Shown one piece after another: positions 10,692 to 51,993 of a stretch of 64,000 bases of DNA (position 1 is the stretch's first letter; each line of letters opens with the position of its first letter). The notes under the pieces are model-generated. The model had not been told where the DNA came from, ran no database searches, and saw only the letters and a list, made by a program, of their open reading frames with translations. A program made the translations under genes and the position numbers. This DNA is from Balanoglossus misakiensis (Eukaryota > Animalia > Hemichordata), in the NCBI GenBank assembly GCA_040954595.2, contig CM082598.2, forward strand, positions 7,703,097 to 7,767,096, in the 5' to 3' direction.

Positions 10692-10843
10692 GCTGATGCT
10701 GTTTTGATTTCGGCGCGGAGAGCGTCTCAGTGTGTGTTACAATACCTGGCAATGCTCTGTGCAGTCGAGTCCGTTGGTTTCTTCTGATCACCACTTCAGC
10801 GACGGTTTCTAGTTGTCGGCTAAAGTCACCTTTCCTGACACCA

Positions 10844-11082
10844 TGTTATGTTATTGACTATTATTATTCGGGAGACCGTGGGGTGGATCGATGACCAGGA
10901 CTGACTCTTATTGCAAGTAAACACAACTATTTATTATGAAGATATGTGCGCGACTGTGTCTAACAGTCCGCCATGAAACAGCAAGAGAGCGAAGTAACAG
11001 CAGGGTTACATGCACTATAAATCAGGGCGCGAGCGAGGGCGCTATATAGCAAGGATAGCTGACACAAGGTGATAACACAACA
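10844..11082 (-). repeat. 5' LTR of Mag-like Gypsy
   Basis: Direct repeat of 6276-6514, followed on the minus strand by a TGGTGTCAG PBS (tRNA-Leu-like by inference). Confidence 0.95.
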
Positions 11083-20182: not shown

Positions 20183-20937
20183 TTATTGGGCCAGTGGCAT
20201 GCTTGACCTACATGTTAGCTTTGGAAGCAAAGTTGACAGCTAGATACTAGACTAAGATAGTGCATGATCACATACAGGCCTAGATGAATCATTACAGACA
20301 CATAAATTATAATGTCCTTCATAGTTGCATAGGTGCATGCAGGGACAGTTAAATTCTCTTCATCTTAATTTCATTTAAATGCCTTCAATGTTTCATGTTG
20401 GGATTGGTAACAGCTTGGAAATGTAATTCGCCCACGCAGTTAAATTTAGATAACGACAAACAATGTTCTCTTTGTTTGTGATGTAGCCCTTATCAAAAAG
20501 GACAGGTACGGCCCCCTTTGGCCATAATGCCCTGACCATATCATCGATCGCCTCATGGCATCACACAGATAAACACACAAAATTTTAAGAGGTTTCCGAG
20601 GGTACTCCATTCAAAATTAGTTTTTTTCGTGATCTTTAGAGATGGCAAAACGTTGGCAATGGCAAAGATGCTGAAAGCCTGTTGCCAAACATTCTTTGAG
20701 AAATCGTGTTAAGGATGTATGATCAGTAAAATTTAAAGTATTGTAATTTCTTTTTAATTGTACATTTTCGGTTTCTCCTTAAATTATAAGCATTAAAAAA
20801 TAGGTGATAACATATAGGTTTCACCGCACTTGTTTTTGAAATACAAGACTGTGAATGAGTCAGCATTTTTCAACAATGGTTTGTCTATGGGCAAAACACT
20901 TAAAAAAGTTTTTCTCAAAATAGAGCGCGGTGACCAC

Positions 20938-22361: not shown

Positions 22362-22468
22362 GACAGCGTGTTTTCAGTGCTCCGACAAAAACTTCAAAAT
22401 TCTGCCTACAGAATAAGGTAAACTCAAGCTGGGTTTCCTATACTTGTGTCATTACGCTAAATCCCACC

Positions 22469-23074
22469 ATGGGCATCGGATTAGAGGCTTGGAGAGCTGG
22501 AATTGGGTGTTTTTCACAGCCAAGAAGTTGGAAAGCGGTATCTCTTGACTGGTACACTCCGTACACGACATGGTCTTCACTCAACGAATTTGGCTACAGG
22601 TTGTTTTCCTGCCTATTTGTATCCGGATTAATCATCTTAGCAACGGAATCGTTACTGTTTGGCACCAACGCATTTTGGTTTTGGCTACAGGTGAGGGGAA
22701 GTTTGTCTTTTCAAGAACATTGCGGTTGTTTTTCCGCTTCAAACAACTCAGGACTCGCGTCAACATACAGTGGGTTACACGTCGACGCCTTTTACGTAAC
22801 ACGCACCTGGACATTCTCAAATTTGACTAACAGTGAAAATGGAGAGTCGCCGATTTGGACGCTGTATACTCCAACGATTTTGTTTCAAGCTGGCGACGTA
22901 GAACTTAATCCAGGTCCACCAAAAACACGGCAAATGAAACTGTATGGAAGAGGCGATTTGTTAGATGTGGAAGATATCGATACTGAAGAGGAAACGAGTG
23001 AGTCGTTACTATCAATACTAAAAGTGATTCGTACCGATATGAAAGGACTACGAAAGGAAATGCAATTAGTAAAT
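22469..23074 (+). pseudogene. LINE ORF1, 5' half: hydrophobic leader, 2A-like peptide, start of coiled coil
   Basis: MGIGLEAWRAGIGCF leader, hydrophobic stretch, ILFQAGDVELNPGP at ~22877-22918; joins 51431 as ..MQLVN-KTVRDIQ.. Confidence 0.8.
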
Positions 23075-24051
23075 TAAAGCTGCAAGCAGCGTTGAAGGGG
23101 CCCAAGCATAGAGTTAATAACCATTAGACGTCATTCAGGGTTGTACCATTCAAATGCTTAGGCTGTATTTGCTCTGGATGTGGAGACATGGGGAAGTAGG
23201 CAACCACCCGAAATGGATGTCTTACAAGTACAAACACAACAACCAAAGGTGAACTTCTACGTTGTAAGTACTTCAGTTACTTCAAAGGTCAGCTGAGGGT
23301 ATCCAAAACTTGGGCCAAAAATTAGGATTCTTATTTGCTTCATATTCAAGACGACGGAAAATCCTCGCTGTTTGGGTTTGTCAAATTAGATATGGCCATA
23401 ATAATGAGTTACGCAAGTAAGTTACAGGTAGCCCCTAAAATTTAACATTTCATGACGCAGAGGGTCCTACCCTACCCCTCCAAACACCTGGCTATACACG
23501 ATGTGCATGCTAACATATGGAAAGCAGGTCAATGGACACCTGATGTCACCCAAAAATTTGACAAAAAATGTTCATCCCTGTTTATGTCATGTGCAACAAA
23601 TCCTACATTTGCAGCCCTTTCACTTTACCTACCATTAGGTATGCACGTAATACATGAATCAAGCAGGTGTCGCAGGTATCCGCCTGTATTTGGCATTTCA
23701 TGATAGTTTCGCTCAGAATACCAAAGCTGCACTTGTACAACGGGCTGAGATATGGCACTGTACGACAGAGGTCATCCAAATCAACTTATACATTTGGGCA
23801 AAACAAACTGACACTTACATTCGTCCCTGTGGAACAAAAACCACACCTATTGCCCTGGTGGTTAGTGTCCAATTAAATGTACAAAATCAAAGACTTAGGC
23901 AGGTGCAACAGGTGACCCCGCCTTTGGTATATCTTTATGGTCCCATCCGTATACTCCCCCCCCCCCCCCACCCCACGCCAAAGCTGCATGCATCTGCTGT
24001 GGATGCTCACTAAGCAAAAGTAGGTGAAATGTCACATAAGATCACCCATAA

Positions 24052-24776
24052 GGCTGCATTCACAAACACCTCTTGAGGGGGGGGGGCGGAGAATTCAATT
24101 TTTTACCGCTAATTTTCACATGCCCCCCGTACACAACCCGAAAAATTTCAAATCCCCCCCTTCCGAACTGCCAAAATTTTGAAATCCCCCCCCCCCCATT
24201 TTCTTTCACAGAGCAAAACACATCACCTTGTATTTTCCTTGTAAAAAAAACAGCGCTCCCATTTTTTAAGTATTTGTATCCTGTGTTGGGAGACATTGTA
24301 AACCGAGAATTGAAGGGGGTGGGTTTGGGATGCGGTGCACGTAAGAAAATTGTATAAAATACAGAGCTCAAAGCTGCATTTTAATGAACCCGGCAAAGGC
24401 AAATGAACTCAACTACCGGTATGTTGGGGAGGACAAATTTAACCGTCGACGCTCAGAGTTATCATGGGGTTGGGGCAAGTCCCCTGACCTGGGACACAAG
24501 ATAAACCAATCAATGATTGAAAGGTGTTGATGAATGGAGGGGTGGGTGTGGGAGGGGGTGTCCCCCTCCCCATTATAAAATTTTGTAAAATAAAGGGCGC
24601 GAAACTGCATTTTTGTGGACTCAAAATAAATTTTTAGTCGTCAACGTTTTCAAGTCCCCCCCCCCTTTCAGTCCCTAAATTATTTCAAATCTCCCCCTTA
24701 CATACCCTCAATTTTTTCAAATCCCCCCTCAATTCTCCTGCCCCGCCCCCCTCCTGAGGTGTTTGTGAATGCAGCC
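24052..24776. mobile_element. TAA-flanked MITE (PIF/Harbinger or Zator-like), 725 bp
   Basis: TIR GGCTGCATTCACAAACACCTC / GAGGTGTTTGTGAATGCAGCC; TAA at 24049-24051 and 24777-24779; empty site CCCATAACTTGACAGG in the paralogous unit at ~49730. Confidence 0.92.
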
Positions 24777-25396
24777 TAACTTGACAGGAAAATCGGACTT
24801 CATATTGATCCATTTGCAACAAATACCACACTAGCATCCCTTTCATTGACCCCACAATTACGCATGCACATAATTGAGTTACGCAGGTGTCACAGGTGAC
24901 CCCCGAATCGGGCGTATTATTTTGGTCCCATACAGCTGCATGAAGCTGCATGCCATTACGGGCGACCTGATAACCCCCACGGCCACCTGTGGGCCAACCC
25001 CCATACTGAACGTTCAGTTGCAACGTCACGACTGAAGTAGGAACTGTTGAACGGCAAAGAAGCCTGATCTCTGATTATTGCTGGTACCATACTCCCTTCG
25101 TGCAAGAAAATCATTGGTCTGCTGACGTATTTCGGCCACATTAGCGACTGAGGGTCGAAGTCCGCTGCCGCATTACATTGAATGTTAACCAGTGTAGCCG
25201 GGTCTAGATAGAAACATTTGAACGGCAACAGCTAACAAACTCAGCGTAATTCAATAAAACGCCCTAACACAGCCTGAACTCCGATAATGTGTTATCCCAA
25301 AATTCATTCCGTGGAAAATAATCACTGGTCTGTTTACGTATTTCAGCCGATTTTCCAAGGACTACTGCAACCCGCCAGAAGTGAGTAGCCTGCTAA

Positions 25397-25925
25397 TGTT
25401 ACGATCTGTATAAAGGTCAAATACGATTTCAAGGGTTAATTAATCCAGAGCTCGGAAATGTCAATGTTTGATAGTATTTTATTTTATGTATTTGAAGTAC
25501 ATAGGGAGAGCGGGTGTTTAACTGACTGCTCTGATTGTCAATCATCACCGAACTGACTTTGTTATATAACACTTTATGTAAATTGGTACGTATAGAGTTG
25601 ACTGATGTCCAATGAAATTGTAACACATTGTATTTGTGATATTTTACATTATTAACCACGCCTTGAGAAAAGTAATTATAAGAGAACTTTGTTTCCAAAG
25701 TTAGGGAGAATAATCTAACGGGAGATGGGAGTACCTCAGGCTACTGAGTTCGTTCCCTTCCTCATGTACTTTACTGGGCGTATTTGATGTACTATATAAT
25801 TCCGGACAATAAATGAACGTGAATCAGATACGTGTCTCCGTGGATCACTGTTCTCGTCAGAGCCCGATACCTCATCGCTACAGATTCCCCAATGCATGAA
25901 CAATCATGAGAAACCAGCCGTAATA
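25397..25925 (+). repeat. 5' LTR
   Basis: TGTTACG..CGTAATA; TATA-like TATATAA ~25793 and AATAAA ~25808. Confidence 0.95.
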
Positions 25926-26002
25926 CATGGTGGAGAAACGAGGGTAGACGAAACAAATCCATCGGAGACAGAAACGGTGACGTCCAGCGGAAAGCTTACA
26001 GC

Positions 26003-29000
26003 ATGGATCGCGAGATGCTAAACGACATGAACAGTCAAATATCGGAAATACGACAGGTTACACTCGGAGCTGGAGGTCAGGTAGGCCCAGGTTTCTTTTC
26101 GGCTACAGAGACTGAGAATGCACACCGATGGTGGAAAAAATATATAGACTTTGCTGACTTTAAGCAATGGTCAGACGATAAACGGCTTAAAGGAATCGGA
26201 CTATATTTGACTGGTGAAGCGGAGCGATGGTTCTACAGACTGTCTGCTGAAAAGAAAAATGACTTGACGACACTGCAAAATGTCTTCCTCGCTCGTTTTG
26301 ATAAGTGAGGTCCGATGTGGCTGTATGACGAGAAACTGTTTCGCCTGAAGCAACTGCCGGACCAGACTGTTGAACAATATGCGGAATTAATATGCGAAAA
26401 AGCAGAAAAAGCGAAAAAGACTGATGAGGAAATACTATCTTTCTTCATGAACGGACTGAGACCGGACATACTAAAGTTCGTAGCGGGAATGACACCTAAG
26501 GACTTCGAAACAGCGTACAAACATGCTCAAACAGCAGAGGTCGTGGCAGGATTACCAGAGACAGACGAGCCAGAAGCGGGTCTTTTACAACAAATCTCGA
26601 CACGGATTGACGAGATGAAACAAGAATATCAAGAAGTGAAGACCAAATCAAGCGCGGCAGATCATCGAGGACGATCGACAAACAGAGAGAAGAAATCGCC
26701 GAATTACAGAGCAAGAGAACGAACAATAGACAATAAGGTAAAGAGGAACAGATATAATTTTACTGGGCACTCTACCCAACGTTTTCCTCGACATAGTCAA
26801 TTTAATTCCCGTGCATGTTTTAATTGTGGGCGTTACGATCATATAGCTAGAAATTGTTCAAAATATGCGTTCTCTGGAAATGTTTCGAAGCCTAGTCGGA
26901 AATTTTATTTTGATGGATCGTCCGACAGGAGGTCATGTACAGGTATAAATGCACTCGGGAAAGAGGGTGCCTATAATGTTAAAGATGGTGTAAACTTTGT
27001 TAACAAAGATGGGTGTGCTTTTCATGAGAATGTTATTCCAATTTCAATATGTCATGAAAAAGTGACGTCATTAATTGATACTGGAGCACATATTACTGTA
27101 GCTCCTATTCGGTTGTTAGAGCTTATTCCCGCTCTAAAGAATTATCCGATGTTCAAGTCCAGACATAATTGTGTACAAACAGCAACCGAAGACAATTTGA
27201 AGGTATTGGGATTTATGAAAATACCTGCTTTTATTGGGAGTAAGCGTGTATTACTGTATGTTAATTTAGTTGAGTCTCTTCAGCATAATCTGATTTTGGG
27301 ACTTGATTTTATGAAGCGTTATAGAGCTGTTATTGATTTCAAGGGTAATATTTTAAGATTACAATCAGACGTACCGTTAAGAACCAATGTTGATGTTAAC
27401 ATTCCACCTGGAAGTGAAATGGTTATTCCAATGAAAGTACCGTATAAATATCTTACTGGAGTTTTAGGTTGTATTTGTGATAAACGAACACGTTTAACCC
27501 CGGGTATTTTGGTAGCTAAGGGGTTGGCCTATTTGAATAAGAATTTTCTTCCCATGCGAGTTGTAAACACTTTGGATACTGTGGTCAAAATTAAGAAAAA
27601 CAGTGTTGTTGGAATGTTTTCGCCCTTGCCCCGTAATAGTGAAATAGTCCCACTCGATAATACTGTCGTTAATTGTGTCTCACCTCAAGGGCCCCGTACA
27701 CAGAAAGAGACGGATGATTTGATGGGTCAATTGAAATTTAATGAATTAGAGATAACTAAGGCACAGCGTAAACAGCTTAGAGATGTTTTACTGCACAATA
27801 TGGAAGCTTTTGTTGATTCTAGTGGTCGTTTAGGCAACTGTGATGTAATCAAACATACAATACGATTACAAGAGGGTGCTGCCCCGTTCCGTCGCCCACC
27901 TTACCGAGTAACGCCTGAGAAAAGGCGTGAACTTGAGCGACAAGTTGATCAGCTGTTAGAACAAAATATTATCGAGCCGTCCACTTCACCGTTTGCTAGT
28001 CCAGTAGTTTTAGTCAAAAAGCCTGATGGTTCGTGGCGTTTTTGCACAGATTTCCGTCATTTGAATAATATTACAGTGCCTGATTCGTTTCCTTTACCCA
28101 GAACTGACGAATCTCTTGAAATGTTAGGCAAGAATAAGCCTCAGTATTTTTCGACGCTTGATTTACAGTCAGGATTTTTTCAATTGGAATTAGATGAAGA
28201 GAGCAGACCAAAGACAGCTTTTGTCCCACATCAAGGGTTATATCAATACAGGAGACTTGCCCAGGGGTTGCGAAATAGTCCCAGTTGTTTTCAGCGTACT
28301 ATGCAACACGTGTTACGCAATATTATGTGGCAATATGTGCTATGTTATATTGATGATATTATTATATTTAGCAGCTCTTTTGAGGAGCATCTACAACACA
28401 TTGATACTGTCCTAACCAGGTTACGTCAAGCTGGATTGAAATTAAAGCCCAGCAAATGTCAATTTATGAGAAAGAGTGTTAATTTTTTGGGTCATATTAT
28501 CAGTAAGGATGGAATTGCGGTTGACGAGAGTAAAGTAACAGCTGTTAAAGAATATCCCCGTCCTCATACTGTCACACAGCTGAAATCATTTTTGGGGTTG
28601 GCCAATTATTATAGAAAGTTTATAAAACATTTCTCGATCATTGCAAGGCCTCTGCATAAATTGTTGGGAAAGGACACGAAATTTGAATGGGATGATCGAT
28701 GCGAACATGCATTCGAGAAATTAAAACATGTCCTGTGTATTCTAGGGTATCCGGATATGAATGAAAATTTCACAATTTATACCGATAGTTCCACTCATGC
28801 CCTGGGGTTTGTTTTAGCTCAACGACAGAATGGTGTTGAACGAGTGATTTTATATGGGGGTCGAAGTTTAAACTGTCACAAAAGAAATTACTCAATTACA
28901 GAATTGGAAGCTTTGGCCGTCATTCATGCTATCCGACAATGTGATCACTATGTACGGAGCAACCATGTCACTAGAGTGACTGATCACTCCAATCTGACTT

Positions 29001-31153
29001 ACATGTTTAAACAGAAAATACCAAGGGGGCGTATTGGCCGTTGGATAATGACCATGCAGCAGTACGATTACGAAATTATCTATAGACCTGGTAAGAAACA
29101 TATGAATGCTGACGGGTTGTCAAGGAGACCATATCAACAATGTGAGGGGTACAAGTCTGACGTCACTGATTTAGAGCATGCGCCTGAAATGAATTACAAG
29201 CCTAACAGTCAGCCAATGGTAGATAAGTGTGTAAACACTGAGCCCATAAACTCACCTTGTATAAATAATATACATACAAGGCAACAAACCGAACCTGGGG
29301 TTCATAATTCTGCTAATAGTGAGGACACATCTGGGTATGGGATTTTACTTAACAGTTCTAACGACACTTCTAACACTGACACCAACACTGAAGTGGATAA
29401 AACATTCGACAGTGAGGTGCAATCACGAATAAAGGGAGAACAGAGAAAGGATGATTATTTGAGTAAATTTCTTAATTATTTAGAGAATGATGAGTTACCA
29501 ACTGATCAAAAGTTAGCTCGTAAATTTGTTAGTATGGCTCCAAATTATGACATTGTTGACGGGGTTTTGTATCATTTTTGGAAACCCACGGGGAAATCAG
29601 CTAGTAAATTAGATTGTGTTAGACAGGTTGTGATACCTAAGTCATTAAGAAATTATGTTCTGCGGTGGGCTCATGATTGTGTTTTAGCGGGACATTTGGG
29701 ATACACTAAAACGTTGGGAGTTTTAAGACAGAGGTATTTTTGGGAAAGGATGCCCCGGGATGTTAATATGTACGTAAAGACATGCGCACATTGTCACACA
29801 CGAAAGAGAGCCACACCCCCTACTCATGCTAAGTTGTTACCTATTCCAGTATCAGGACCCTGGGACCGACTGGGTATGGATATTGTGGGACCCCTCCCTA
29901 GAACGTATGATGGTCATAAATACATCTTAGTACTTACTGATTACTTTACTAAATTTCCACTAGCATATCCATTACGTAATGCACGAGCTGAGACAGTCGC
30001 TAAGATCTTGTTTGATGAAGTAATTGCTACTTATGGCAGCCCCAGAGTTTTGCTGAGTGATCAGGGATCGAATTTTTTATCCCAAGTAGTTCGTGAAACT
30101 TGCAAATTTTTCAACATCCAGAGGAAAGTTTCTACCCCTTATCGTCCACAGACTAATGGCCTTACAGAGCGTTTCAATGGTTGCCTAGTCGACATGCTGT
30201 CCATGTTTGTCGATAGTAAACAGAAAGATTGGGATCGGTACCTAAGTTCAGTGCTTTTCGCTTATAGAGTTAGCCCTCAAGAGTCCAGTGGGTTCAGCCC
30301 GTATTATCTGTTATACGGTCTGCATCCCACATTGCCCATGGATGTTGAGTTTTAGCCAGTTGAGGGGAGGACGAGAAATATAGATACACACCTTAAACAT
30401 TTAGCTGCTAAAAGGGAGATAGCTCATAAAATCGCCAAAGAGAATATAGATCGATATCAACAGAATATGAAGGACCGTTATGATCAAAATATCCAACGGT
30501 CACAAAATCTTAAAGTGGGGGATCCTGTATATTTATACACACCATCTGTTAAACCAGGAGTTAATAAGAAATTCATACATAAGTGGACAGGTCCTTACAT
30601 TATTTCTGAGAAGGTGGGTCCTGTTAATTATAAGTTGCGCTTCATAAATAGCACCAGGAATTATCGTAAAGTCATACATGTGAATAGATTAAAAAGAGCT
30701 TATTTGCGGCCCTCTGAGTTTGACTCATCCTCATCTGATGAGTCGTGTGAAGAAAACGATGTCCCAGAAACCACAAATTATGAAAATGGGACCGAAATAT
30801 GTCAAAGTGCAGAAGCAGAAACATATGCAGAATCAGAAAATGGTTCTGATCAAATTGAGGGATTGGGATTGAGAGATTTGTCGTCAAGGACAAATCCCAG
30901 TGCTTTCGATGAAACTGACAACAATGGAAATTGTCAGACTAATGCTTCTGAGCCATTTTACGATATAGACAATGTGTTAAAGGGTCGATATAGAAATGGG
31001 AAATTACAGTATTTGGTTAAGTGGAAGAATTATTCAAACAAACATAATACGTGGGAGGATGAAGACAATTTGAATGAAGCTGCGAAAGAGTATTTGATAA
31101 GAAATCTTGTAAAGATACAAGGGAAACAGGTTATAGCACATTTGCACATTTAA
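26003..31153 (+). pseudogene. gag-pol in a single frame with two in-frame stops (26306 TGA, 30353 TAG): gag, knuckle, protease, RT, RNase H, integrase, GPY/F, chromodomain
   Basis: CFNCGRYDHIARNC; LIDTGA; YIDDII; YTDSS..ELEALA..TDH; HD..GHLG..CAHC; MDIVG..SDQG..TERFN; KWTGPY; FYDIDNVL..QYLVKWKNYSNKHNTWEDEDNL. Confidence 0.94.
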
Positions 31154-32166
31154 ATCTATGGACAGAGAAATATATGCGTAACAGAAAAAAAACGGAAAAG
31201 GGAGACACGTGGTTGATTGAAATGAATATTTGAATATGACTGAGAGGTATGAGTGTTGGCCGGCCTGTATGAGTGAGTGTACGATTGGCGTGTCCCTTGA
31301 TTCGTTTAATGTTACGTAAGTTGTCGAATGACATTTTATTATCCGTTGTTTGCTGAGTTTAGGTGTAAGAGCTGTGCAACCTGGTTCCCGTGTCACTCTG
31401 TTTAAATGTGTTGATGTATTTAAGTTGTAAAGAAATTACCAGTGAAGTTTGAAGTTGCAGAGATTTTAACACTGGAGAAAAACGTGAGTTGAATTTGCCG
31501 TTCGTTTGATGACCTAAATAAATGGTCCAATTTGTGTATATAGCCCCTTTTAATGGCTATGTGTTTGTATAAAGAAACCAAAGAAAATCCGATTTTCGAA
31601 TGAAGAAAATGCCATTTTCGAAGTTGTAAAGAGTGGATTTTTGACAAAACGCTAAGATGTTTCAGTTTTAATTTTTTAAGGTTATTGAATTTGCCCGACA
31701 TGACGTAACTCGAGAATAAGCAATGTCGGATGATCGTTCGATGTAAAAGAATGCAAGAGAGTTTCGTTTGAGTCAATAAGACAACAGATATTCAGATTGT
31801 GTTGAATGATGGATACAACGTTTTATGGGTTTACAGAGTTGCGATTTTATTGGTTATATTAGTATGTGGATCGGTGTGCGAAGGTTTTATGTGCACATAC
31901 TATTTTAAAATTATATGTACTTTTATTCTGTAGTAATTTTTGTATTGTAATTTTATAATTTTTCAAGACGATCACTTCATAGACATGACTCGATTTTTTC
32001 AAATATTTTACTTCAATTTTGTTATATATATTGTACTCTTACATTTCAAAATCATACGATACAACTTAATATATTCTTGGGGTGGAATTGAACAATTACC
32101 CTTGGGGTACTGCTCTTTAAGAGATTTGTGTCCAATGCGGGACGCATTGGTTTAAAAGGAGGGGAG

Positions 32167-32695
32167 TGTTACGATCTGTATAAAGGTCAAATACGATTTC
32201 AAGGGTTAATTAATCCAGAGCTCGGAAATGTCAATGTTTGATAGTATTTTATTTTATGTATTTGAAGTACATAGGGAGAGCGGGTGTTTAACTGACTGCT
32301 CTGATTGTCAATCATCACCGAACTGACTTTGTTATATAACACTTTATGTAAATTGGTACGTATAGAGTTGACTGATGTCCAATGAAATTGTAACACATTG
32401 TATTTGTGATATTTTACATTATTAACCACGCCTTGAGAAAAGTAATTATAAGAGAACTTTGTTTCCAAAGTTAGGGAGAATAATCTAACGGGAGATGGGA
32501 GTACCTCAGGCTACTGAGTTCGTTCCCTTCCTCATGTACTTTACTGGGCGTATTTGATGTACTATATAATTCCGGACAATAAATGAACGTGAATCAGATA
32601 CGTGTCTCCGTGGATCACTGTTCTCGTCAGAGCCCGATACCTCATCGCTACAGATTCCCCAATGCATGAACAATCATGAGAAACCAGCCGTAATA
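32167..32695 (+). repeat. 3' LTR
   Basis: Direct repeat of 25397-25925 after PPT. Confidence 0.95.
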
Positions 32696-33085
32696 CTAAT
32701 GAGATCTCCACAACATTACGTAATGACGGTCAAAGTCCGATGCCCCAGTGTCCGTCCTCAGCCCACCAAACATGCGAAAAATATTACAAAAATCTTCTTC
32801 TCAAAATCGACGTGGCCTAGGACTTTGAAATTTGGCACAGGGGATTTTGGCCACATGGTCTACAAAAATCGCGAAAAGAATGTACATTCCCCCATTAACG
32901 TGCAAATTAGGTCAATTTGAAAATTTCGCTCGATTATAGCCACCAAGTCACGTGACTAATTACAAATTCAAAGGGCAGGTGCACCAGTACTCATGGGCCC
33001 CAATCATCGTGCCAAACTTCATAGGCGCAGGTGCCGGAATTTCAGAGAAAAACGGGAGCAAAAAAACGACTCAAGAAGAAAGAAG

Positions 33086-39000: not shown

Positions 39001-42000
39001 CTTCTCGAAATTGACATGGCCTATGGCCTTGACATTTGGCATGTAGAACCCTGGCCATGTGGTCCACAAAGCATCTGAACAGAATTTTGATATCTCCATT
39101 CATATGCAAATAAGGCCGATTTCAAAATTTTGCCCATATATGGTCATCAGGTCACATGACTAATTAAACATTCACAAGGGTACTGCACTAGCTCTCATTG
39201 GCCTGCACCATTGTGCCAGGTTTGAAATTGGTAGGTTTAGCAGTTTTCCAGATCTACCTCGCCAAAGAAAACGACAGAAGAAGAAAAAGAAGAAGTAGAA
39301 GAATATAGCTGCAAGCAGCAATGGCGGGCCCAAGCAAACATAGCACATAGCAACATAGCAATAAGCATATCTGCTCTGGATGCCAAGATATGGAAAAGTA
39401 GGTCAAAGGTCACCTGAGGTCATGCAAAATTTGGGCGAGAAATTTTGACCCTATACTGGTCCATGTTCATCAAAAACCAAACCTATAGCCCTATTGGTTT
39501 GCCTGGAATTAGGTATGCACATAATTAATGAGGTAGGCAGGTGTCACAGGTGACCCCCCAATTTGGCTTTTCAATTTTAGTCCCAACCATCCAAACGCCA
39601 ATTCTGTATCTGCTCTGGATGCCAAGATATGGTAAAGTAGGTCAAAGGTCACCTGAGGTCATGCAAAATTTGGGCAATAAATTTTGACCCTATACTGGTC
39701 CACGTTCAACAAAAACCAAACCTATAGCCCTATTGGTTAGCCTGGAATTAGGTATGCACATAATTAATGAGATATGCAGGTGTCACAGGTGACCCCTATT
39801 TTGGCTTTTCAACTTTAGTCCCAACCCTCCAAACGCCAAGTCTGTACCTGCTCTGGATGCCGAGATATAGGAAAGTAGGTCAAAGGTCACCTGAGGTCAC
39901 CCAAAATTTGGACAAGAAATGTTGACCCTATACTGGTCCATGTCCCACAAGAACGAAACCTCTAGCCCTCTTAGTTAGCCCAGAATTAGGTATGCACATA
40001 ATTAATGAGTTAAGCAGGTGTTACAGGTGAGCCTAAAATTCTGCCTTTTATTTTGGTGCCATTGTGCTCACTGACCAATAGACACTCACTGTACAGGACT
40101 ATTGCACTGACCAGAATTCCACAATAAGACATGGACATAGAGGTATAAGTAAAGGTATAAATTTATTTTAAAAATTAATATAAAAAAATCCGTCGATTTT
40201 TCATATTATTTTTTTCCGCTTAAAATTATTGACAAATGCTAGTCTAGCTGCACACCAAAGTTGGAGATGATTGGCCTGACAGATTTTGAGATATGTATGC
40301 ATATTTATCCAAAATAATATGTGGTCATAGCTTTACTATGGAAAGTATAGGCCCATGGCTTGGTCAAAAAATATGAAAAATAATACTTAAAAATCTTCTT
40401 CTCAAAATTGGCATGGCCAATGGCCTTGACATTTGGCAAGTAGGACACTGACCACATGGTCCGCAAAAGTTGCTAAAAGAATTTTGATATCTCCATTCAT
40501 ATGCAAATAAGGCCGATTTGGAAATTTTGCCCATATATGGTCATCAGGTCACATGACTAATTACACATTCACAAGGGTACTGCACGAGCTCTCATAGGCC
40601 TGCACCATTGTGCCAAATGTGAGATTTGTAGGTTCAGCCGTTTTCACGATCTAGCTGGACAAAAAAACGACACAAGAAGAAGAAGAAGAAGAAGAAGTAG
40701 AAGAATATAGCTGCAAGCAGCAATAGCGGGCCCAAGCCAACATAGCACATAGCACATAGCAACATAGCAATAAGCATATCTACTCTGGATGCCAAGATAT
40801 GGTAAAGTAGGTCAAAGGTCAACTGAGTTCATGCAAAATTTGGGCAAGAAATTTTGACCCTATACTGGTCCATGTTCAACAAAAACCAAACCTATAGCAC
40901 TATTGGTTAGCCTGGAATTAGGTATGCACATAATTAATGAGGTAGGCAGGTGTCACAGGTGATCCCCAATTTTGGCTTTTCAATTTTAGTCCCAACCCTC
41001 CAAACGCCAAGTCTGTACCTGCTCTGGATGCCAAGATCTGGTAAAGTAGGTCAAAGGTCACCTAATGTCAAGCAAAATTTGGGCAAGAAATTTTGAACCT
41101 ATACTGGTCCATGTTCAACAAAAACCAAACCTATAGCCCTATTGGTTAGCCTGGAATTAGGTATGCACATAATTAATGAGATATACAGGTGTCACAGGTG
41201 ACCCCCATTTTGGCTTTTCAATTTTAGTCCCAACCCTCCAAACGCCAAGTCTGTACCTGCTCTGGATGCCGAGATATAGGAAAGTAGGTCAAAGGTCACC
41301 TGAGGTCACCCAAAATTTGGGCAAGAAATTTTGACCCTATACTGGTCCATGTCCCACAAGAACGAAACCTCTAGCCCTCTTAGTTAGCCCAGAATTAGGT
41401 ATGCACATAATTAATGAGTTAAGCAGGTGTTACAGGTGAGCCTAAAATTTTGCCTTTTATTTTGGTGCCATTGTGCTCACTGACCAATAGACACTCACTG
41501 TACAGGACTATTGCACTGACCAGAATTCCACAATAAGACATGGACATAGAGGTATAAGTAAAGGTATAAATTTATTTAAAAAATTAATATAAAAAAATCC
41601 GTCGATTTTTCATATTATTTTTTTTCGCTTAAAATTATTGACAAATGCTAGTCTAGCTGCACACCAAAGTTGGAGATGATAGGCCTAACAGATTTTGAGA
41701 TATGTATGCATATTTATCCAAAATAATATGTGGTCATAGCTTTACTATGGAAAGTATAGGCCCATGGCTTGGTCAAAAAATATGAAAAATAATACTTAAA
41801 AATCTTCTTCTCAAAATTGGCATGGCCAATGGCCTTGACATTTGGCAAGTAGGACACTGACCACATGGTCCGCAAAAGTTGCTAAAAGAATTTTGATATC
41901 TCCATTCATATGCAAATTAGGCCGATTTGGAAATTTTGCCCATATATGGTCATCAGGTCACGTGACTAATTTAACATTCACAAGGGTACTGCACTAGCTC

Positions 42001-45000
42001 TCATTGGCCTGCACCATTGTGCCAAGTTTGAAATTGTTAGGTTTAGCAGTTTTCCAGATCTACCTCGCCAAAGAAAACGACAGAAGAAGAAGAAAAAGAA
42101 GAAGTAGAAGAATATAGCTGCAAGCAGCGATGACGGGCACAAGCTTAAGCCGAAGGTCAAAGGTCATATGTGGTCACCCAAAATTTGGGCAAAAAGTTTT
42201 GACCCCCATACTAGTCCAGGTCCAACAGAAACCTGACCTCTAGCCCTATTGGTTTGTCTGAAATTAGAAATGCACATAATTAATGATGTAAAGTGGAAGA
42301 CTCCATTAATAGTTCGATCCATCCAAACACAAATGATGTACCTGCTCTGGATGCCGAGATATAGCAAAGTAGGTCAAATGTCACCTGAGGTCACCCAAAA
42401 TTTGGGCAAAATTTTTGACCCCATACTGATCCATGTCCCACAAGAACAAAACCTCTAGCCCTATTGGTTAGCCTGGAATTAGGTATGCACATAATTAATG
42501 AGATATGCAGGTGTCACAGGTGACCCCCAATTTTGGCTTTTCAATTTTAGTCCCAACCCTCCAAACGCCAAGTCTGTACCTGCTGTGAATTCCGAGATAT
42601 AGGAAAGTAGGTCAAAGGTCACCTGAGGTCACCTAAAATTTGGGCAAAAATTTTTGATCCCATACTGGTCCATGTCCCACAAGAACAAAACCTCTAGCCC
42701 TATTAGTTAGCCTGGAATTAGGTATGCACATATTTAATGAGTTAAGCAGGTGTTACAGGTGAGCCCAAAATTTTGCCTTTTATTGTGGTCCCATTCTGCT
42801 CACGGGCCAATAGAGAGTCACTGTACAGGACGCACAGCCAACGTGGACATAGCGTGATAGCTTAACTATAGAAAGCATAGGCCTATGGCTGGGTCCAAAA
42901 ACATGAAAAATAAAAAAATCTTCTTCTCAAAATAGACTTGGCCCACGGCATTGACATTTGGCATGTAGGACACTGACCACATGGTCTGCAAAAATCCCTA
43001 AAAGAATTTTGATATCTCCATTCATATGCAAATTAGGCCAATTTGAAAACTTTGCCCATATATGGTCATCAGGTCACATGACTTATTAAACATTCACGAG
43101 GGTACAGCACCAGCTCTCATAGGCCTGCATCAGTGTGCCAAGTTTGAGATTTGTAGGTTCAGCCGTTTTCAAGATCCTGTTGGGCAAAAAAACGACACAA
43201 GAAAAAAAAAAAGAAGAAAAAACCCAGTAATACCAATAGGGCACAAGCCTGCTTGGCTTGTGCCCTAAAAATATAGCTGCAAGCAGCAATGGCGGGCCCA
43301 AGCCAACATAGCACATAGCAACATAGCAATAAGCATATCTGCTTTGGATGCCAAGATATGGAAAAGTAGGTCATAGGTCACCTGAGGTCATGCAAAATTT
43401 GGGCGAGAAATTTTGACCCTATACTGGTCCATGTTCATCAAAAACCAAACCTATAGCCCTATTGGTTAGCCTGGAATTAGGTATGCACATAATTAATGAG
43501 GTAGGCAGGTGTCACAGGTGACCCCCCAATTTGGCTTTTCAATTTTAGTCCCAACCATCCAAACGCCAATTCTGTATCTGCTCTGGATGCCAAGATATGG
43601 TAAAGTAGGTCAAAGGTCACCTGAGGTCATGCAAAATTTGGGCAATAAATTTTGACCCTATACTGGTCCACGTTCAACAAAAACCAAACCTATAGCCCTA
43701 TTGGTTAGCCTGGAATTAGGTATGCACATAATTAATGAGATATGCAGGTGTCACAGGTGACCCCTATTTTGGCTTTTCAACTTTAGTCCCAACCCTCCAA
43801 ACGCCAAGTCTGTACCTGCTCTGGATGCCGAGATATAGGAAAGTAGGTCAAAGGTCACCTGAGGTCACCCCAAATTTGGGCAAGAAATTTTGACCCTATA
43901 CTGGTCCATGTCCCACAAGAACGAAACCTCTAGCCCTCTTAGTTAGCCCAGAATTAGGTATGCACATAATTAATGAGTTAACCAGGTGTTACAGGTGAGC
44001 CTAAAATTTTGCCTTTTATTTTGGTGCGATTGTGCTCACTGACCAATAGACACTCACTGTACAGGACTATTGCACTGACCAGAATTCCACAATAAGACAT
44101 GGACATAGAGGTATAAGTAAAGGTATAAATTTATTTTAAAAATTAATATAAAAAAATCCGTCGATTTTCCATATTATTTTTTTTCGCTTAAAATTATTGA
44201 CAAATGCTAGTCTAGCTGCACACCAAAGTTGGAGATGATCGGCCTAACAGATTTTGAGATATGTATGCATATTTATCCAAAATAATATGTGGTCATAGCT
44301 TTACTATGGAAAGTATAGGCCCATGGCTTGGTCAAAAAATATGAAAAATAATACTTAAAAATCTTCTTCTCAAAATTGGCATGGCCAATGGCCTTGACAT
44401 TTGGCAAGTAGGACACTGACCACATGCTCCGCAAAAGTTGCTAAAAGAATTTTGATATCTCCATTCATATGCAAATAAGGCCGATTTGGAAATTTTGCCC
44501 ATATATGGTCATCAGGTCACGTGACTAATTTAACATTCACAAGGGTACTGCACGAGCTCTCATAGGCCTGCACCATTGTGCCAAATGTGAGATTTGTAGG
44601 TTCAGCCGTTTTCACGATCTAGCTGGACAAAAAAACGACACAAGAAGAAGAATATAGCTGCAAGCAGCAATAGCGGGCCCAAGCCGACATAGCACATAGC
44701 AACATAGCAATAAGCATATCTGCTCTGGATGCCAAGATATGGTAAAGTAGGTCAAAGGTCACCTGAGTTCATGCAAAATTTGGGCAAGAAATTTTGACCC
44801 TATACTGGTCCATGTTCAACAAAAACCAAACCTATAGCCCTATTGGTTAACCTGGAATTAGGTATGCACATAATTAATGAGGTAGGCAGGTGTCACAGGT
44901 GACCCCCCAATTTGGCTTTTCAATTTTAGTCCCAACCCTCCAAACGCCAAGTCTGTATCTGGTCTCGATGCCAAGATCTGGTTAAGTAGGTCAAAGGTCA

Positions 45001-48000
45001 CCTGAGGTCATGCAAAATTTGGGCAAGAAATTTTGACCCTGTACTGGTCCATGTTCAACAAAAACAAAACCTATAGCCCTATTGGTTAGCCTGGAATTAG
45101 GTATGCACATAATTAATGAGATATGCAGGTGTCACAGGTGACCCCTATTTTGGCTTTTCAACTTTAGTCCCAACCCTCCAAACGCCAAGTCTGTACCTGC
45201 TCTGGATGCCGAGATATAGGAAAGTAGGTCAAAGGTCACCTGAGTTCACCCCAAATTTGGGCAAGAAATGTTGGCCCTATACTGGTCCATGTCCCACAAG
45301 AACGAAACATCTAGCCCTCTTAGTTAGCCCAGAATTAGGTATGCACATAATTAATGAGTTAAGCAGGTGTTACAGGTGAGCCTAAAATTTTGCCTTTTAT
45401 TTTGGTGCCATTGTGCTCACTGACCAATAGACACTCACTGTACAGGACTATCGCACTGACCAGAATTCCACAATAAGACATGGACATAGCTTAACCATAG
45501 AGGTATAAGCAAAGGTATAAATTTAATAAACAAATTAATATAAAAAAATCTGTCGATTTTTCATATTATTTTTTTCTGCTTAAAATTATTGACAAATGCT
45601 AGGCTTGCTGCACACCAAAGTTGGAGATGATCGGCCTAACAGATTTTGAGATATGTATGCATATTTATCCAAAATAATATGTGGTCATAGCTTTACTATG
45701 TAAAGTATAGGCCCATGGCTTGGTCAAAAAATATGGAAAATAATACTTAAAAATCTTCTTCTCAAAATTGGCATGGCCAATGGCCTTGACATTTGGCATG
45801 TAGGACACTGACCACATGGTCCGCAAAAGTTGCTAAAAGAATTGTGATATCTCCATTCATATGCAAATAAGGCGGATTTGAAAATTTTGCCCATATATGG
45901 TCATCAGGTCACGTGACTAATTAAACATTCACAAGGGTACTGCACTAGCTCTCATTGGCCTGCACCATTGTGCCAAGTTTGAAATTGGTAGGTTTAGCAG
46001 TTTTCCAGATCTACCTCGCCAAAGAAAATGACAGAAGAAGAAAAAGAAGAAGAAGTAGAAGAAAAACCCCAGTAATACCAATAGGGCCCAAGCCTGCTGG
46101 GCTTGGGCCCTAAAAAAGAAGAAGTAGAAGAATATAGCTGCAAGCAGCGATGACGGGCACAAGCTTAAGCCGAAGGTCAAAGGTCATATGTGGTCACCCA
46201 AAAATTGGGCAAAAAGTTTTGACCCCCATACTAGTCCAGGTCCAACAAAAACCAGACCTCTAGCCCTGTTGGTTCGCCTAGAATTAGATATGCACATGAT
46301 TAATGAGGTAAAGTATAAGGCTCCATTAGGAGTTCCATGCCTCCAAATGCCAAGGCTGTATCTGCATGGGTTGCCAAGATACGGTAAAGTAGGTCAAAGG
46401 TCACCTGAGGTCACCCAAAATTTGGGCAAGAAATTTTAACCCCATACTGGTCCATGTTCAACAAAAATCAAACCTCTAGCCCTATTGGCTAGCCTGGAAT
46501 TAGGTATGCACATAATTAATGAGATAAGCAGGTGTCATAGGTGACCCCCAATTTTGTCTTTTCAATTTTAGTCACAACCCTCCAAACGCCAAGTCTGTAC
46601 CTGCTGTGGATGCCGAGATATAGGAAAGTAGGTCAAAGGTCACCTAAGGTCACCCAAAATTGGGGCAAAAATTGTTGATCCCATACTGGTCCATGTCCCA
46701 CAAGAACAAAACCTCTAGCCCTAATAGTTAGCCCGGAATTAGGTATGCACATAATTAATGAGTTAAGCAGGTGTTACAGGTGAGCCCAAAATTTTGTCTT
46801 TTATTTTGGTCCCATTCAGCTCACGGGCCACTAGACTGTCACTGTACAGGACAATTGCACAGACGTGGACATAGCGTCATAGCTTAACTATAGAAAGTAT
46901 AGGCCTATGGCTGGGTCCACAAATATGACAAATAATATTTAATAATCTTCTTCTCAAAATAGACTTGGCCCACGGCCTTGACATTTGGCATGTAGGACAC
47001 TGACCACATGGTCCGCAAAAGTTGCTAAAAGAATTTTGATATCTCCATTCATATGCAAATTAGGCCCATTTGAAAACTTTGCCCATATATGGTCATCAGG
47101 TCACATGACTTATTAAACATTCACGAGGGTACTGCACCAGCTCTCATAGGCCTGCATCACTGTGCCAAGTTTGAGATATGTAGGTTCAGCCGTTTTCAAG
47201 ATCCTATTGGGCAAAAAAACTACACAAGAAAAAGAAGAGGATGAAAAACCCCAGTAATACCAATAGGGCACAAGCCTGCTTGGCTTGTGCCCTAAAAAAA
47301 GCCAGTAATACCAATAGGGCCCAAGCCCGCTGGGCTTGGGCCCTAAAAAACCCCAGTAATACCAATAGGGCCCAAGCCTGCTGGGCTTGGGCCCTAAATA
47401 TAGCTGCAAGCAGCGATGACGGGCACAAGCTAAGGCCGAAGGTCAAAGGTCATATGTGGTCACCCAAAATTTGGGCAAAAAATTTTGACCCCATACTAGT
47501 CCAGGTCCAACAAAAACCAGACCTCTAGCCCTATTGGTTCGCCTAGAGTTAGATATGCACATAATTAATGAGGTTAAGTATAAGGCTCCATTATGAGTTC
47601 CATGCCTCCAAATGCCAAGGCTGTATCTGCATGGGTTGCCGAGATACGGTAAAGTAGGTCAAAGGTCACCTGAGGTCACCCTAAATTGGGCAAGAAATTT
47701 TAACCCCATACTGGTCCATGTTCAACAAAAATCAAACCTCTAGCCCTATTGGCTAGCCTGGAATTAGGTATGCACATAATTAATGAGATAAGCAGGTGTC
47801 ACAGGTGACCCCCAATTTTGTCTTTTCAATTTTAGTCACAACCCTCCAAACGCCAAGTCTGTACCTGCTGTGGATGCCGAGATATAGGAAAGTAGGTCAA
47901 AGGTCACCTGAGGTCACCCAAAATTTAAGCAAAAATTTTTGATCCCATACTGATCCATGTCCCACAAGAACAAAACCTCTAGCCCTAATAGTTAGCCCGG

Positions 48001-48500
48001 AATTAGGTATGCACATAATTAATGAGTTAAGCAGGTGTTACAGGTGAGCCCAAAATTTTGTCTTTTATTTTGGTCCCATTCAGCTCACGGGCCACTAGAC
48101 TGTCACTGTACAGGACAATTGCACAGACGTGGACATAGCGTCATAGCTTAACTATAGAAAGTATAGGCCTATGGCTGGGTCCACAAATATGACAAATAAG
48201 ATTTAATAATCTTTTTCTCACAATAGACTTGGCCCACGGCCTTGATATTTGGCATGTAGGACACTGACCACATGTTCCGCAAAAATTGCTAAAAGAATTT
48301 TGATATCTCCATTCATATGCAAATTAGGCCCATTTGAAAACTTTGCCCATATATGGTCATCAGGTCACATGACTTATTAAACATTCACGAGGGTACTGCA
48401 CCAGCTCTCATAGGCCTGCATCACTGTGCCAAGTTTGAGATTTGTAGGTTCAGCCGTTTTGAAGATCCTATTGGGCAAAAAAACTACACAAGAAAAAAAA
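33086..48500. repeat. Satellite-like array: 1.1-2.1-kb units, each with about 2-6 copies of a ~239-240-bp internal repeat
   Basis: TAGGTCAAAGGTCACCTGAGGTCA recurs e.g. at 35151, 35390, 35630, 35869. Confidence 0.92.
47246..47396 (-). repeat. Stack of three hairpin heads
   Basis: Stems at 47264-47294, 47315-47345, 47366-47396, each preceded by CCAGTAATACCAA. Confidence 0.9.
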
Positions 48501-48504
48501 GAGG

Positions 48505-48789
48505 ATGAAAAACCCCAGTAATACTAATAGGGCACAAGCCTGCTTGGCTTGTGCCCAAAAAAAAAAAAAGATGAAAAACCCCAGTAATACCAATAGGGCA
48601 CAAGCCTGCTTGGCTTGTGCCCTAAAAAAACAGGGTAAAACCAATAGGGCACAAGCGCCTGAGGGCGCTTGTGCCCTAAAAAACCCCAGTAATACCAATA
48701 GGGCACAAGCGCCTGAGGGCGCTTGTGCCCTAAAAAACTCCAGCAATGACAGAAGGGGACCAAGCGCCTGAGGGCGCTTGGTCCCCTAA
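48505..48789 (-). repeat. Stack of five hairpin heads
   Basis: Stems at 48528-48556, 48594-48624, 48645-48678, 48699-48732, 48754-48787. Confidence 0.9.
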
Positions 48790-50215
48790 TTAAAGCTGCA
48801 AGCAGTATTGAAGGGGCCCAAGCATAGAGTTAATAACCATTAGACTCCATTCAGGGTTGTACCATTCAATTGCGTAGGCTGTATTTGCTCTGGATATAGA
48901 GATATGGGGAAGTAGGCAACCACCCAAAATGGATGTCTTACAAGTACAAACAACCAAAGGTGAACTTCTACGTTGTAAGTACTTCAGTAAGTATACTTCA
49001 AAGGTCAGCTGAGGGTACCCAAAAATTGGGCCAAAAATTAGGATTCTTAGATGGTTCATATACAAGACAACGGAAAATCCTCGCTGTTACGGTTTGTCAA
49101 ATTAGATATGGCCATAATAATGAGTTACGCGAGTAAGTTACAGGTGGCCCCAGGAATTTAGCATTTCATGACGCAGAGGGTCCTACCCTACCCCTCCAAA
49201 CACCTGGCTATATATGATGTGCGTGCTAACATATGGAAAGCAGGTCAATGGACACCTGAGGTCACCCAAAAATTTGACAAAAAATTTTCATTCCTGTTTA
49301 TGTCATGTGCAACAAATCCTACATTTGCAGCCCTTTCACTTTGCCTACCATTAGGTATGCACGTAATACATAAATCAAGCAGGTGTCGCAGGTATCCCCC
49401 TGTATTTGACATTTCATGATAGTTTCATCCCTCCAAATACCAAAGCTGCACCTGTACAACGGGCTGAGATATGGCACTGTACGACAGAGGTCATCCAAAT
49501 CAACTTATACATTTGGGCAAAAACAAACTGACACTTACATTCGTCCCTGTGGAACAAAAACCACACACCTGTTGGTTAGTTTAGGCAGGTGCAACAGGGG
49601 ACCCCGCCTTTGGTATATCATTATGGCCCCATCCGTATATGCCGCCCCCCCCCCCCAAATGCCAAAGCTGCATGCATCTGCTGTGGATGCTCACTAAGCA
49701 AAAGTAGGTGAAATGTCACATAAGGTCGCCCATAACTTGACAGGAAAATCGGACTTCAAATTGATCCATGTGCAACAAATACCACGCTAGCATCCCTTTC
49801 ATTGACTCCACAATTACGCATGCAAATAATTGAGTTACACAGGTGTCACAGGTGACCCCGAATCGGGCGTATTACTAGTATTTTGGTCCCATACAGCTGC
49901 ATGAAGCTGCGTGCTATTACGGGCGACCTGATAACCCCCACGGCCACCTGCGGGCCAACCCCCATACTGAACGTCCAGTTGCAACGTCACGACTGAAGTA
50001 GGAACTTTTGAACAGCAACGAAGCCTGATCTCTGATTATTGCTGGTACCATACTCCCTACGTGCAAGAAAATCACTGGTCTGCTGATGTATTTCGGCCAC
50101 ATTAGCGACTGAGGGTCAAAGCCGTCGCCGCATTACATTGAATGTTAACCAGTGTAGCCGGGTCTGGATAGAAACATTTGAACGGCATTAGCTAACAAAC
50201 TCAGCGTAATTCAAT

Positions 50216-50840
50216 TGTAGAATCTGAAAAACCTACAGCCTATGGTCCCCGACAGATACACAACGAGATACACGTATTGTTGACCTCGTTTAATAATATA
50301 AAAACGTACGGTTCTGGAAATAAATTACAGGTACAATAAATTCAAGGAAATTATAACAATGTCAAAACCGGCATAGAAATGTTATGCACGGCAGCAATAA
50401 ATGTGTACAATACATCAAGTATTCACTAAAGAAAATAGTCAGAAATTATCTCGAAATGCAAACGTTCTGAAGTTGAAGAATATAATTCGGCAGAAAGTGC
50501 CACGTCACCATCCAGTTGTCTGCAGAGTAAAATGCCACGTCACCATCCAGTTGTCTTTAGACTAAAATAAATTCGTATACGACCGGAAAACAACTCACCT
50601 CGGATTGTGAAGTTTCGGGGGCGATAGTTACAGCACGCTCACAACTAATTGTTAACTACAGCAAATTAGTAGGCCGTGCGGACAGGAACACAGTAGTGTT
50701 CAGTAAAACGAAAGGGAAAAACTGGCCACTGGAAGGGCCTAAGCTTATATAGCTACGAAAAATTTGCATATTAGGCCACATCCGCGCACTAGCAGTACAC
50801 CTGCTTTTTGAACAGCCAATGAGCAGAGCTTGCAGTAATA
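50216..50840 (-). mobile_element. Probable solo LTR, 625 bp
   Basis: Absent from the paralogous unit (25251 TCAATAAAAC); flanked by TCAAT on both sides; minus strand reads TATTAC..TCTACA with CCAAT/TATA-like motifs near the start. Confidence 0.65.
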
Positions 50841-51430
50841 TCAATAAAACGCCCTTACACAGCCTGAACTCCGATAATGAGCTGTCCCAAAATTCATTCC
50901 GTGGAAAATAATCACTGGTCAGTTTACGTATTTCAGCAGATTTTCCAAGGACTACTGCAACCCGCCAGAAGTGAGTAGCCTGCTAATGAGATCTCCACAA
51001 CATTACGTAGTGACGGTCAAAGTCCGATGCCCTAGTGTCCGTCCTCAGCCCACCAAAAATGCGAAAAATATTACAAAAATCTTCTTCTCAAAATCGACGT
51101 GGCCTAGGACCTTGAAATTTGGCACAGGGGATTTTGGCCACACGGTCTACAAAAATCGCGAAAAGAATGTACATGCCCCCATTAACGTGCAAATTAGGTC
51201 AATTTGAAAATTTCGCTCGATTATAGCCACCAAGTCACGTGACTAATTACAAATTCGAAGGGCAGGTGCACCAGTACTCATGGGCCCCAACCATCGTGCC
51301 AAATTTCAAGGTCCTAGGCCACATCGATTTTGAGAAAAACGGGAGCAAAAAAACGACTCAAGAAGAAAGAAGAAAAACTCCAGCAATAACAGAAGGGGAC
51401 CAAGCGCCTGAGGGCGCTTGGTCCCCTAAT

Positions 51431-51993
51431 AAAACTGTCAGAGATATACAGTCAAAACAAGATGAACTGGTTCAGCAAAATAAGGTGTTAAGCGACAGGA
51501 TTGGTGAGCTTGAGAACGAAGTCGTCGGGCTACGCTCTCAAAGTTGTCGAAATAACGTCATTTTCAGAGGAGTAAAAAAACTAGAAGGTGAGACATGGAA
51601 TGACTGTGAAAAGGTTGTTCGTGACATTCTGAAATCAAAATTTGACGTAGCAGAAGCAGATGACGAGAAGCAAGTTCCCATCGAACGAGCGCACAGACTA
51701 AATATAAAAACGAAGAAAGGAGTTCCACGACCAATTATTGTCAAGTTTCTATCATTCAAGACGAAGTCCAGATACTGCAAAAGGCACGTGGCATCTTGAC
51801 CAGAGAATCAGACATGAGCGTGAGTGAAGATCTTCCGCCACAAGTTCGTCGTTCTCGCAAAAAACTCATTCCGTTTCTTGTCAAGGTGAGAGAAGAGGGA
51901 AAACGCGCCCATTTGTATTTTGATAAGCTTGTGATTGACAGTAAGAAATATCAACTTGACGAAAAGGGTGATTTGATTGCAACTGGTCGTTAG
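51431..51993 (+). pseudogene. LINE ORF1, 3' half (coiled coil, L1-like RRM and CTD), frameshift ~51770
   Basis: SCRNNVIFRGV, IERAHRL, PRPIIVKF, VSEDLPPQVRRSRKKLIP, AHLYFDKLVID. Confidence 0.88.

Follow-up and report, generated by a model that had tools for sequence, protein, structure and literature searches.

We analysed a 64,000-nt stretch of the Balanoglossus misakiensis contig CM082598.2 (the window; 40% GC, no N; all positions are those of the whole window), in which a block of 13 mobile-element units lies inside the first open reading frame (ORF1) of a long interspersed nuclear element (LINE). By their anatomy the units are classed as non-autonomous HLE2 (HINE/Helitron2-type) elements. 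The block is best explained by repeated self-insertion at a TTTT^T site, which lies in every copy about 50 bases behind the 5' hairpin, followed by later remodelling; we give this reading a probability of roughly 0.8. Nesting by repeated insertion had been proposed from the letters alone (the sequence-only reading) and is supported here by an empty copy of the outer site, a rejoining tract, the concentration of the joints at one site and nested joints elsewhere in the species.

A RepHel transposase from another locus, to which the HINE/Helitron2 anatomy points, would copy an element and insert the copy at T^T without duplication. Every such event would cut the resident element in two, leaving its head detached and its body headless, and would supply a fresh site; heads would accumulate on one side and bodies on the other. 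A usable T-run left beside an old head is proposed to account for head-to-tail neighbours. Remodelling may have proceeded by slippage among the 51-bp heads, by exchange between internal arrays or by copying part of the nest as a unit. It likely removed three heads and one body, leaving a record that is only partly readable.

Composition of the array

The host LINE and the units of the block are located as follows.

22372-23071, plus strand: 5' portion of the host LINE up to the insertion point, with the leader and the beginning of ORF1 (frame 22838-23071)
23072-51427, minus strand: the block as a whole, 28,356 bp long and inserted at a single T^T with no duplication of the target; edges slide by up to 2 bases in an A-run
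23072-33086, minus strand: A1, the outermost type-A element, represented here by its tail and its body up to a split tract; 95-97% identical to A2 by pieces
33087-34654, minus strand: B1, tail and body, 5 internal monomers, head detached
34655-36726, minus strand: B2, tail and body, 7 monomers, terminating in half of a long A-run
36727-42111, minus strand: C1, C2, C3 and C4, tails and bodies of about 1.2-1.4 kb each, one C head remaining for all four
42112-43268, minus strand: B3, complete, with head (hairpin 43239-43265)
43271-44651, minus strand: C5, tail, body and left half of its tract
44652-46113, minus strand: C6, complete, in the middle of the C5 tract (hairpin 46084-46110)
46114-46131, minus strand: remaining right half of the C5 tract
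46132-47295, minus strand: B4, complete (hairpin 47266-47292)
47296-47397, minus strand: two detached C heads (hairpins 47317-47343 and 47368-47394)
47398-48558, minus strand: B5, complete (hairpin 48530-48556)
48559-48788, minus strand: four detached heads, that of B2 (48596), two long-loop B heads (48647, 48701) and that of A1 (48756)
48789-51427, minus strand: A2, complete type-A element, head-to-tail with A1
51428-55566, plus strand: remainder of the host LINE, with the second part of ORF1 (51431-51796) and with ORF2, which encodes endonuclease and reverse transcriptase

Thirteen tails were found, 12 of them exact copies of GCTGCAAGCAGC and one a variant ending in T (48794). All lie on the plus strand from 23078 to 48794, and the motif occurs neither on the minus strand of the window nor outside this span; one metagenome scan gave 0 stretches. 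The 11 hairpin heads start at 43239, 46084, 47266, 47317, 47368, 48530, 48596, 48647, 48701, 48756 and 51396. Both counts agree with those of the sequence-only reading, whose head positions lie within 2 bases of ours. By tail and subterminal inverted repeat (subTIR) two units belong to type A, five to type B and six to type C, in the order A1 B1 B2 C1 C2 C3 C4 B3 h C5 C6 h B4 h h h B5 h h h h h A2 h (h, head). All share one orientation, and the element anatomy reads on the minus strand. Self-BLAST found no copy of the family in the window beyond 23072-51429.

Five units are complete (B3, C6, B4, B5 and A2). On the minus strand such a unit starts with T-AGGG and a hairpin of 13-15 bp, followed by a spacer of about 17 bases, a T-run/CTT tract and a conserved 285-bp block; in types B and C 2-7 monomers of 216-240 bp come next, and a second subTIR copy and a small palindrome form the end. 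The asymmetrically placed subTIR (GGGCACAAGC / GGGCCCAAGC, 10-11 bp) is common to head and tail of B and C and occurs with 1 mismatch in type A. Together with its inverted repeat it makes up the 5' hairpin, for which z was -4.4 to -8.9 and 0 of 200 shuffles folded as well (4 of the 11 heads folded). The 3' palindrome, GCTGC/GCAGC, is present in 13/13 tails (in A2 with one changed base) and folded in 3 of 3 tails tried, no better than shuffles (z 0.9, 0.8 and -0.6). The longest Met-to-stop frame in the three stretches scanned had 93-119 aa.

The element-strand ends are T-AGGG and CTATA-T or CTTTAA-T, and the target is T^T. These ends and this target rule out a canonical Helitron1 (5' TC, 3' CTRR, A^T target). 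The Helentron/HINE identity that had been put forward is supported by subTIRs, 5' hairpin, tract, internal repeats and T^T insertion without duplication. Elements of this class would share their ends with an autonomous RepHel element, and for a Helentron in the strict sense the RepHel protein of this partner would be fused to an endonuclease domain.

The empty outer site

Part of the array is contained in five public runs, the best two of which, X1 and X2, hold 0.54 and 0.47 of its words; there was no RNA run among the listed public runs containing parts of the array. Since X1, X2 and X5 come from one sample, they count as one independent source. Contig records of X1 and X2 were matched between the flanks by equal length, depth and strand.

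Both runs contain a copy of the host LINE without the block. In an 819-base contig of X1 (depth 48.3), letters 1-120 lie on 51547-51428 and letters 114-819 on 23078-22372; in a 905-base contig of X2 (depth 82.7), letters 2-329 lie on 22751-23078 and letters 323-896 on 51428-52000. Positions 23071 and 51428 are neighbours in both (letters 121/120 in X1, 322/323 in X2), and in the empty copy ORF1 reads through without a break in frame. This adjacency in contigs of two runs indicates that the whole 28,356 bases sit at one T^T point without duplication. The label LINE rests on the endonuclease and reverse transcriptase of ORF2; Pfam gave no family for either ORF1 half, and the two halves show no alignment with one another.

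Motifs of the 2A type occur in LINEs of marine invertebrates. The start of the host ORF1 (22838-22920) carries the 2A-like motif DVELNPGP. The 2A consensus is given as D(V/I)ExNPGP in a published abstract. Decayed LINE pieces flank the host LINE at 20934-22350 and 55856-56781; they may be one older LINE that was split by the host LINE.

Position and structure of the joints

Nine of the 12 inner tails abut the T-run of a head-side tract, three stand directly behind a head and none lies in a body, which agrees with the earlier observation that most bodies end at the A/GAA tract and run into the next tail without a head. The landing site is 51-66 bases from the outer end of the head. This distance and the concentration of the joints bear out the idea of a landing pad about 50 bp inside the element's own 5' end. 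The bodies (19,437 bases) contain 99 same-sense A-runs and 20 opposite-sense T-runs of at least 5, none of them used by a tail; the pads make up 0.23-0.27 of the runs of at least 5 per element (hand-corrected). The chance of finding 12 of 12 joints at pads or head edges is roughly 1e-7 or less, or 2e-4 to 4e-4 if only six events are independent.

At the pad joints the A-run on the tail side has a length of 2 in seven of nine cases (3 and 16 in the other two), and that on the head side is 6 long in four of seven, 7 in two and 13 in one. These regular counts fit a cut after four T's, as in the Helitron2 rule (PMC3627910; this and the papers below are cited from their accessible text).

The split tract of C5 is the best single proof of nesting. 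It ends early at 44651, and its remainder lies behind the C6 head at 46114-46130 (minus strand); the rejoined halves equal the C4 tract (42087-42110) in 24 of 24 letters. The long A-run of B2 is split likewise, its remainder preceding the head at 48596. The A1 tract breaks at 33086, and the missing head is found at 48735-48787, where 52 of 53 bases equal the head of A2; the suggestion that the head of the first type-A body reappears near 48754 was thus correct. A2 itself is not nested. It stands head-to-tail beside A1 at the same LINE site, with no host base between the two, provided that two terminal T's belong to each A element.

Joints elsewhere in the species were taken from contigs laid on 47396-52000 (15 of 73 joints and 12 of 89 between-letter rows listed), their shorter sides comprising only 23-26 letters. 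Among the joints listed, that of a B tract to an A tail reached a depth of 4,756 in X1, those of a B tract back to a B/C tail 1,968, 1,212 and 765, that of a short-loop B head to an A head 3,206 in X1 and 1,224 in X2, and that of a B tract to a long-loop head 752 in X2, contig depth being a rough guide that gives no copy number. The pairings of B tract with A tail and of short-loop B head with A head are absent from the window. In X1 the nested joints have 16-98 times the depth of the LINE-flank contig, in X2 1-15 times. Loose ends beside A-type tails elsewhere include many other A-rich, mixed flanks (agreement 0.57-0.64), and these varied flanks indicate that dispersed copies exist too.

The bias for the pad over other T-runs is likely due to nearness to the hairpin or to a longer motif (TTTT^TCTTC), two causes which are inseparable here. 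Nesting could accordingly be real without self-recognition, the pad being the best match to an extended preference (a T-run, then CTTC) and local hopping supplying the copies. We rate this a serious possibility, somewhat short of an even chance; it bears on why the pad is favoured and does not conflict with repeated self-insertion. Helitron2 has been published as targeting TTTT^T/C (PMC3627910), no copy of the longer motif GAAGAAAAA occurs on either strand of the 19,437 body bases, and C6 used a second T5 run in the middle of a tract. The nearly identical neighbours B4/B5 and C3/C5 would suit local hopping. However, the outer LINE site and the A-run of B2 lack the longer motif, the loose A-type ends elsewhere have the mixed A-rich flanks described above, and three tails stand directly at a head edge, including that of A2 beside the A1 head in LINE DNA.

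More speculatively, the transposase might be drawn to resident hairpins and insert at the nearest TTTT^T, building self-targeted satellite-like blocks of several HLE2 subfamilies whose partial nests are re-mobilised as units; we consider this rather doubtful. If it were true, a genome-wide excess of bodies or heads would reveal the end at which Helitron2/Helentron copying starts. Outer head-tail pairs may, as the sequence-only reading proposed, be mobile as composites.

Order of the heads and relatedness of the units

At most 10 of the 11 heads can be paired with a tail of the same subTIR type without crossing, a value reached by 5 of 4,620 label arrangements (P=0.001, all heads permuted), and five of the paired heads directly follow their own body. 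The two detached C heads at 47296-47397 belong, as we infer, to C5 and to the C1-C4 block; of the long-loop B heads at 48647 and 48701 one is assigned to B1 and the other is spare.

The C units are mosaics with 93.2-96.6% identity (C1-C4 among themselves 93.6-96.2%, adjacent C units 93.8-96.2%, C4/C6 96.6%, C4/C5 96.4%), except for C3/C5 with 98.7% over 1,370 bases without gaps. B4 and B5 are 97.6% identical. Neighbouring units diverge by at least 3.8%, and the subtype changes. The stack of heads is a near-perfect tandem with a period of 51 (TRF). The 285-bp block has two left and two right variants, which C1-C6 combine as 2x2 mosaics; from one C unit to the next along the array the right variant changes in strict alternation.

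An origin of the array mainly by local tandem duplication or from rolling-circle concatemers of headless units, with slippage producing the head stacks and few true insertions, is improbable in our view. It would suit the 98.7% identity of C3 and C5, the alternation of two 5'-block types from C1 to C6 and the tandem-like stacks, but C4 is hardly closer to C6 than to C5, the C3/C4 and C5/C6 joints cut the tract at different places, the stacked heads switch subtype in the order which the bodies need, and the left-over tract halves lie where nesting puts them. Duplication or homologous integration of circles yields head-to-tail joints, not the tract-to-tail joints seen here, and rolling-circle concatemers and circle integration were rejected as their source. 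Nor is the block a satellite formed by tandem duplication, which would show complete head-to-tail units and homogenised neighbours; its joints are headless, its subtypes are mixed and its adjacent C units differ to the extent given above.

The pile could also be partly ready-made, partial nests having been copied as units, although this appears rather unlikely. Four C bodies with one head would then result if copying ran from an outer tail to the first head, and a two-headed B unit if it ran from an outer head to the first tail. Both imbalances observed have exactly these shapes. Head-start copying to the first 3' end corresponds to the FoHeli model (PMC5148889), a 3' start was proposed for Helitron2 (PMC3627910), and end bypass is found in PMC4067079. 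The same shapes, however, would also arise from the loss of three 51-bp units from the near-perfect head tandem together with exchange between internal arrays. The comparison of monomers for a B1/B2 chimera did not decide the matter: the second monomer of B1 is only 86% like the first monomers of B4 and B5.

Several observations weigh against repeated self-insertion as set out above. When the six detached heads alone are permuted, 4 of 60 arrangements reach 10 pairs (P=0.07). Strict last-in-first-out order holds for six heads and fails at the seventh, and four brackets are unbalanced, three C bodies being headless and one long-loop B head spare. The proposal that the head stack is an ordered insertion record stands as far as the roughly last-in-first-out order and the 10 pairs go; given the unbalanced brackets and the imperfect order, the stack is a partial record only. 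Private differences (C1 30, C2 19, C3 4, C4 7, C5 5, C6 16) show no clean age gradient. The likeness of C3 and C5 and the alternation of the 5'-block types suggest that duplication or conversion took place, so that the events are not independent. No RepHel frame was recognised among the window's ORFs, only five of which were Pfam-scanned. The locus was picked as striking, and the statistics on site bias are within-locus figures. In the left flank the empty copy differs from the window by about 1.5% (11 differences in about 706 places in X1, 6 in 328 in X2), so that it may be an allele or a paralogue. No contig among those listed bridges the filled LINE junctions, which neither confirms nor refutes the assembly of the array.

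These unbridged junctions and the great depth of the family in the runs would also be expected if the unit order were an assembly artefact of a very high-copy repeat. We regard this as highly improbable: the window is free of N, independent contigs join the two flanks to the exact base, joints of the tract-to-tail and head-to-head kinds are likewise found in contigs, and all units are distinct sequences.

Comparison with known systems

HINE/DINE-1-like elements have a 5' subTIR with inverted repeat, a left-flank microsatellite, central tandem repeats and a T-rich TT target (PMC4067079, PMC7492417). Like HINEs, including the oyster Cg_HINE, the array units also have a 3' subTIR with palindrome, insert without duplication and lack coding capacity (PMC4067079, PMC7492417). 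The accessible text of these two papers describes dispersed copies, clusters and end-bypass tandem arrays; insertion into the element's own 5' tract and bracket nests are not described there. General rules for HLE2 elements are given for Paramecium (PMC13085455) and with HELIANO (PMC11417382).

Helitron2 inserts after TTTT and before T/C without duplication (Bao and Jurka 2013, PMC3627910). Asymmetric terminal inverted repeats, the 5' hairpin and TTTT^T insertion without duplication are shared with the array (PMC3627910). Unlike here, the target rule is not tied to a site within the element in what is accessible of that paper, and the words 'nested' and 'tandem' are absent from its main text. 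For the target preference of Helentron/Helitron2 elements the accessible literature gives no more than a short T rule (TT, TTTT^T/C) and leaves the mechanism to future biochemistry.

The sequence-only reading knew of no description of such an architecture. This does not hold in general, since self-insertion giving multiple 5' termini has been proposed for FoHeli (PMC5148889, PMC13342296). In Fusarium oxysporum, stacked 5' ends of FoHeli (31-85 nt repeated) were explained by self-insertion near the 5' end (PMC5148889), and the idea was reused for FoHeli-type multiple 5' termini, up to five (PMC13342296). The array probably works like FoHeli self-insertion. The FoHeli trace consists mainly of several heads on one body, with one nested copy seen in the accessible text, to which the supplements may add (PMC5148889, PMC13342296). 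In contrast, the array, from an animal-type genome, keeps the nested intermediate: it has 13 tails, three cross-inserting subtypes and split tracts, and its outer site is also known in the empty state. A literature search on Helitron2 self-insertion yielded only the Fusarium paper, and we found no description of deep, site-fixed, cross-subfamily nests in animals in the open-access literature, supplements aside. Xenopus Helitrons form tandem arrays, for which the accessible text describes no self-insertion (PMC12001565).

Opposite directions of copying have been proposed, with a 3' start (PMC3627910) or a head start (PMC5148889). Target choice and copying direction become testable from genome data in a nest like this one, whose outer site is also known empty, whose joints are resolved to the base and whose surplus heads or bodies can be counted. 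The array also shows how a long satellite-like block can be built at a single harmless place without any unequal crossing-over, and blocks of this kind will be mistaken in annotation for satellites or truncated copies.

Insertions in the type-A units and other features of the window

The body of A1 carries two unrelated insertions.

24054-24777, no strand assigned: miniature inverted-repeat transposable element (MITE), 724 bp, terminal inverted repeats of about 21 bp, TAA duplicated
25398-32696, plus strand: Gypsy/chromovirus-type long terminal repeat (LTR) retrotransposon, 7,299 bp

The sequence-only reading took 23072-33085 as the first body; 8.0 kb of this length belong to these two elements: A1 is the A2 sequence plus the MITE and the gypsy element, minus about 630 bases that A2 has. 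We take the MITE to be PIF/Harbinger-like; its interior resembles 19120-20185 and 61347-62032 (67-83%). The gypsy element is young. It has identical 529-bp LTRs, a 4-bp duplication and a chromodomain, and its frame is broken by stops near 26306 and 30353.

The extra bases of A2 (about 625-630, at 50216-50841) are missing from A1 and from many contigs and have no other copy in the window. The joint without this stretch has a depth of 5,339 in X1 and also occurs in X3 and X5, and a 5-base repeat at the edges of the stretch suggests an insertion.

A second LTR retrotransposon lies on the minus strand at 6276-11082, with LTRs at 6276-6514 and 10844-11082 (99.2%); on either side of it are pieces of what is probably a DNA transposon (ORFs 1669-2757 and 12589-14032). 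Around the LTR element there are direct and inverted duplications of 180-600 bases with 89-94% identity (3439-4959, 12021-12697).

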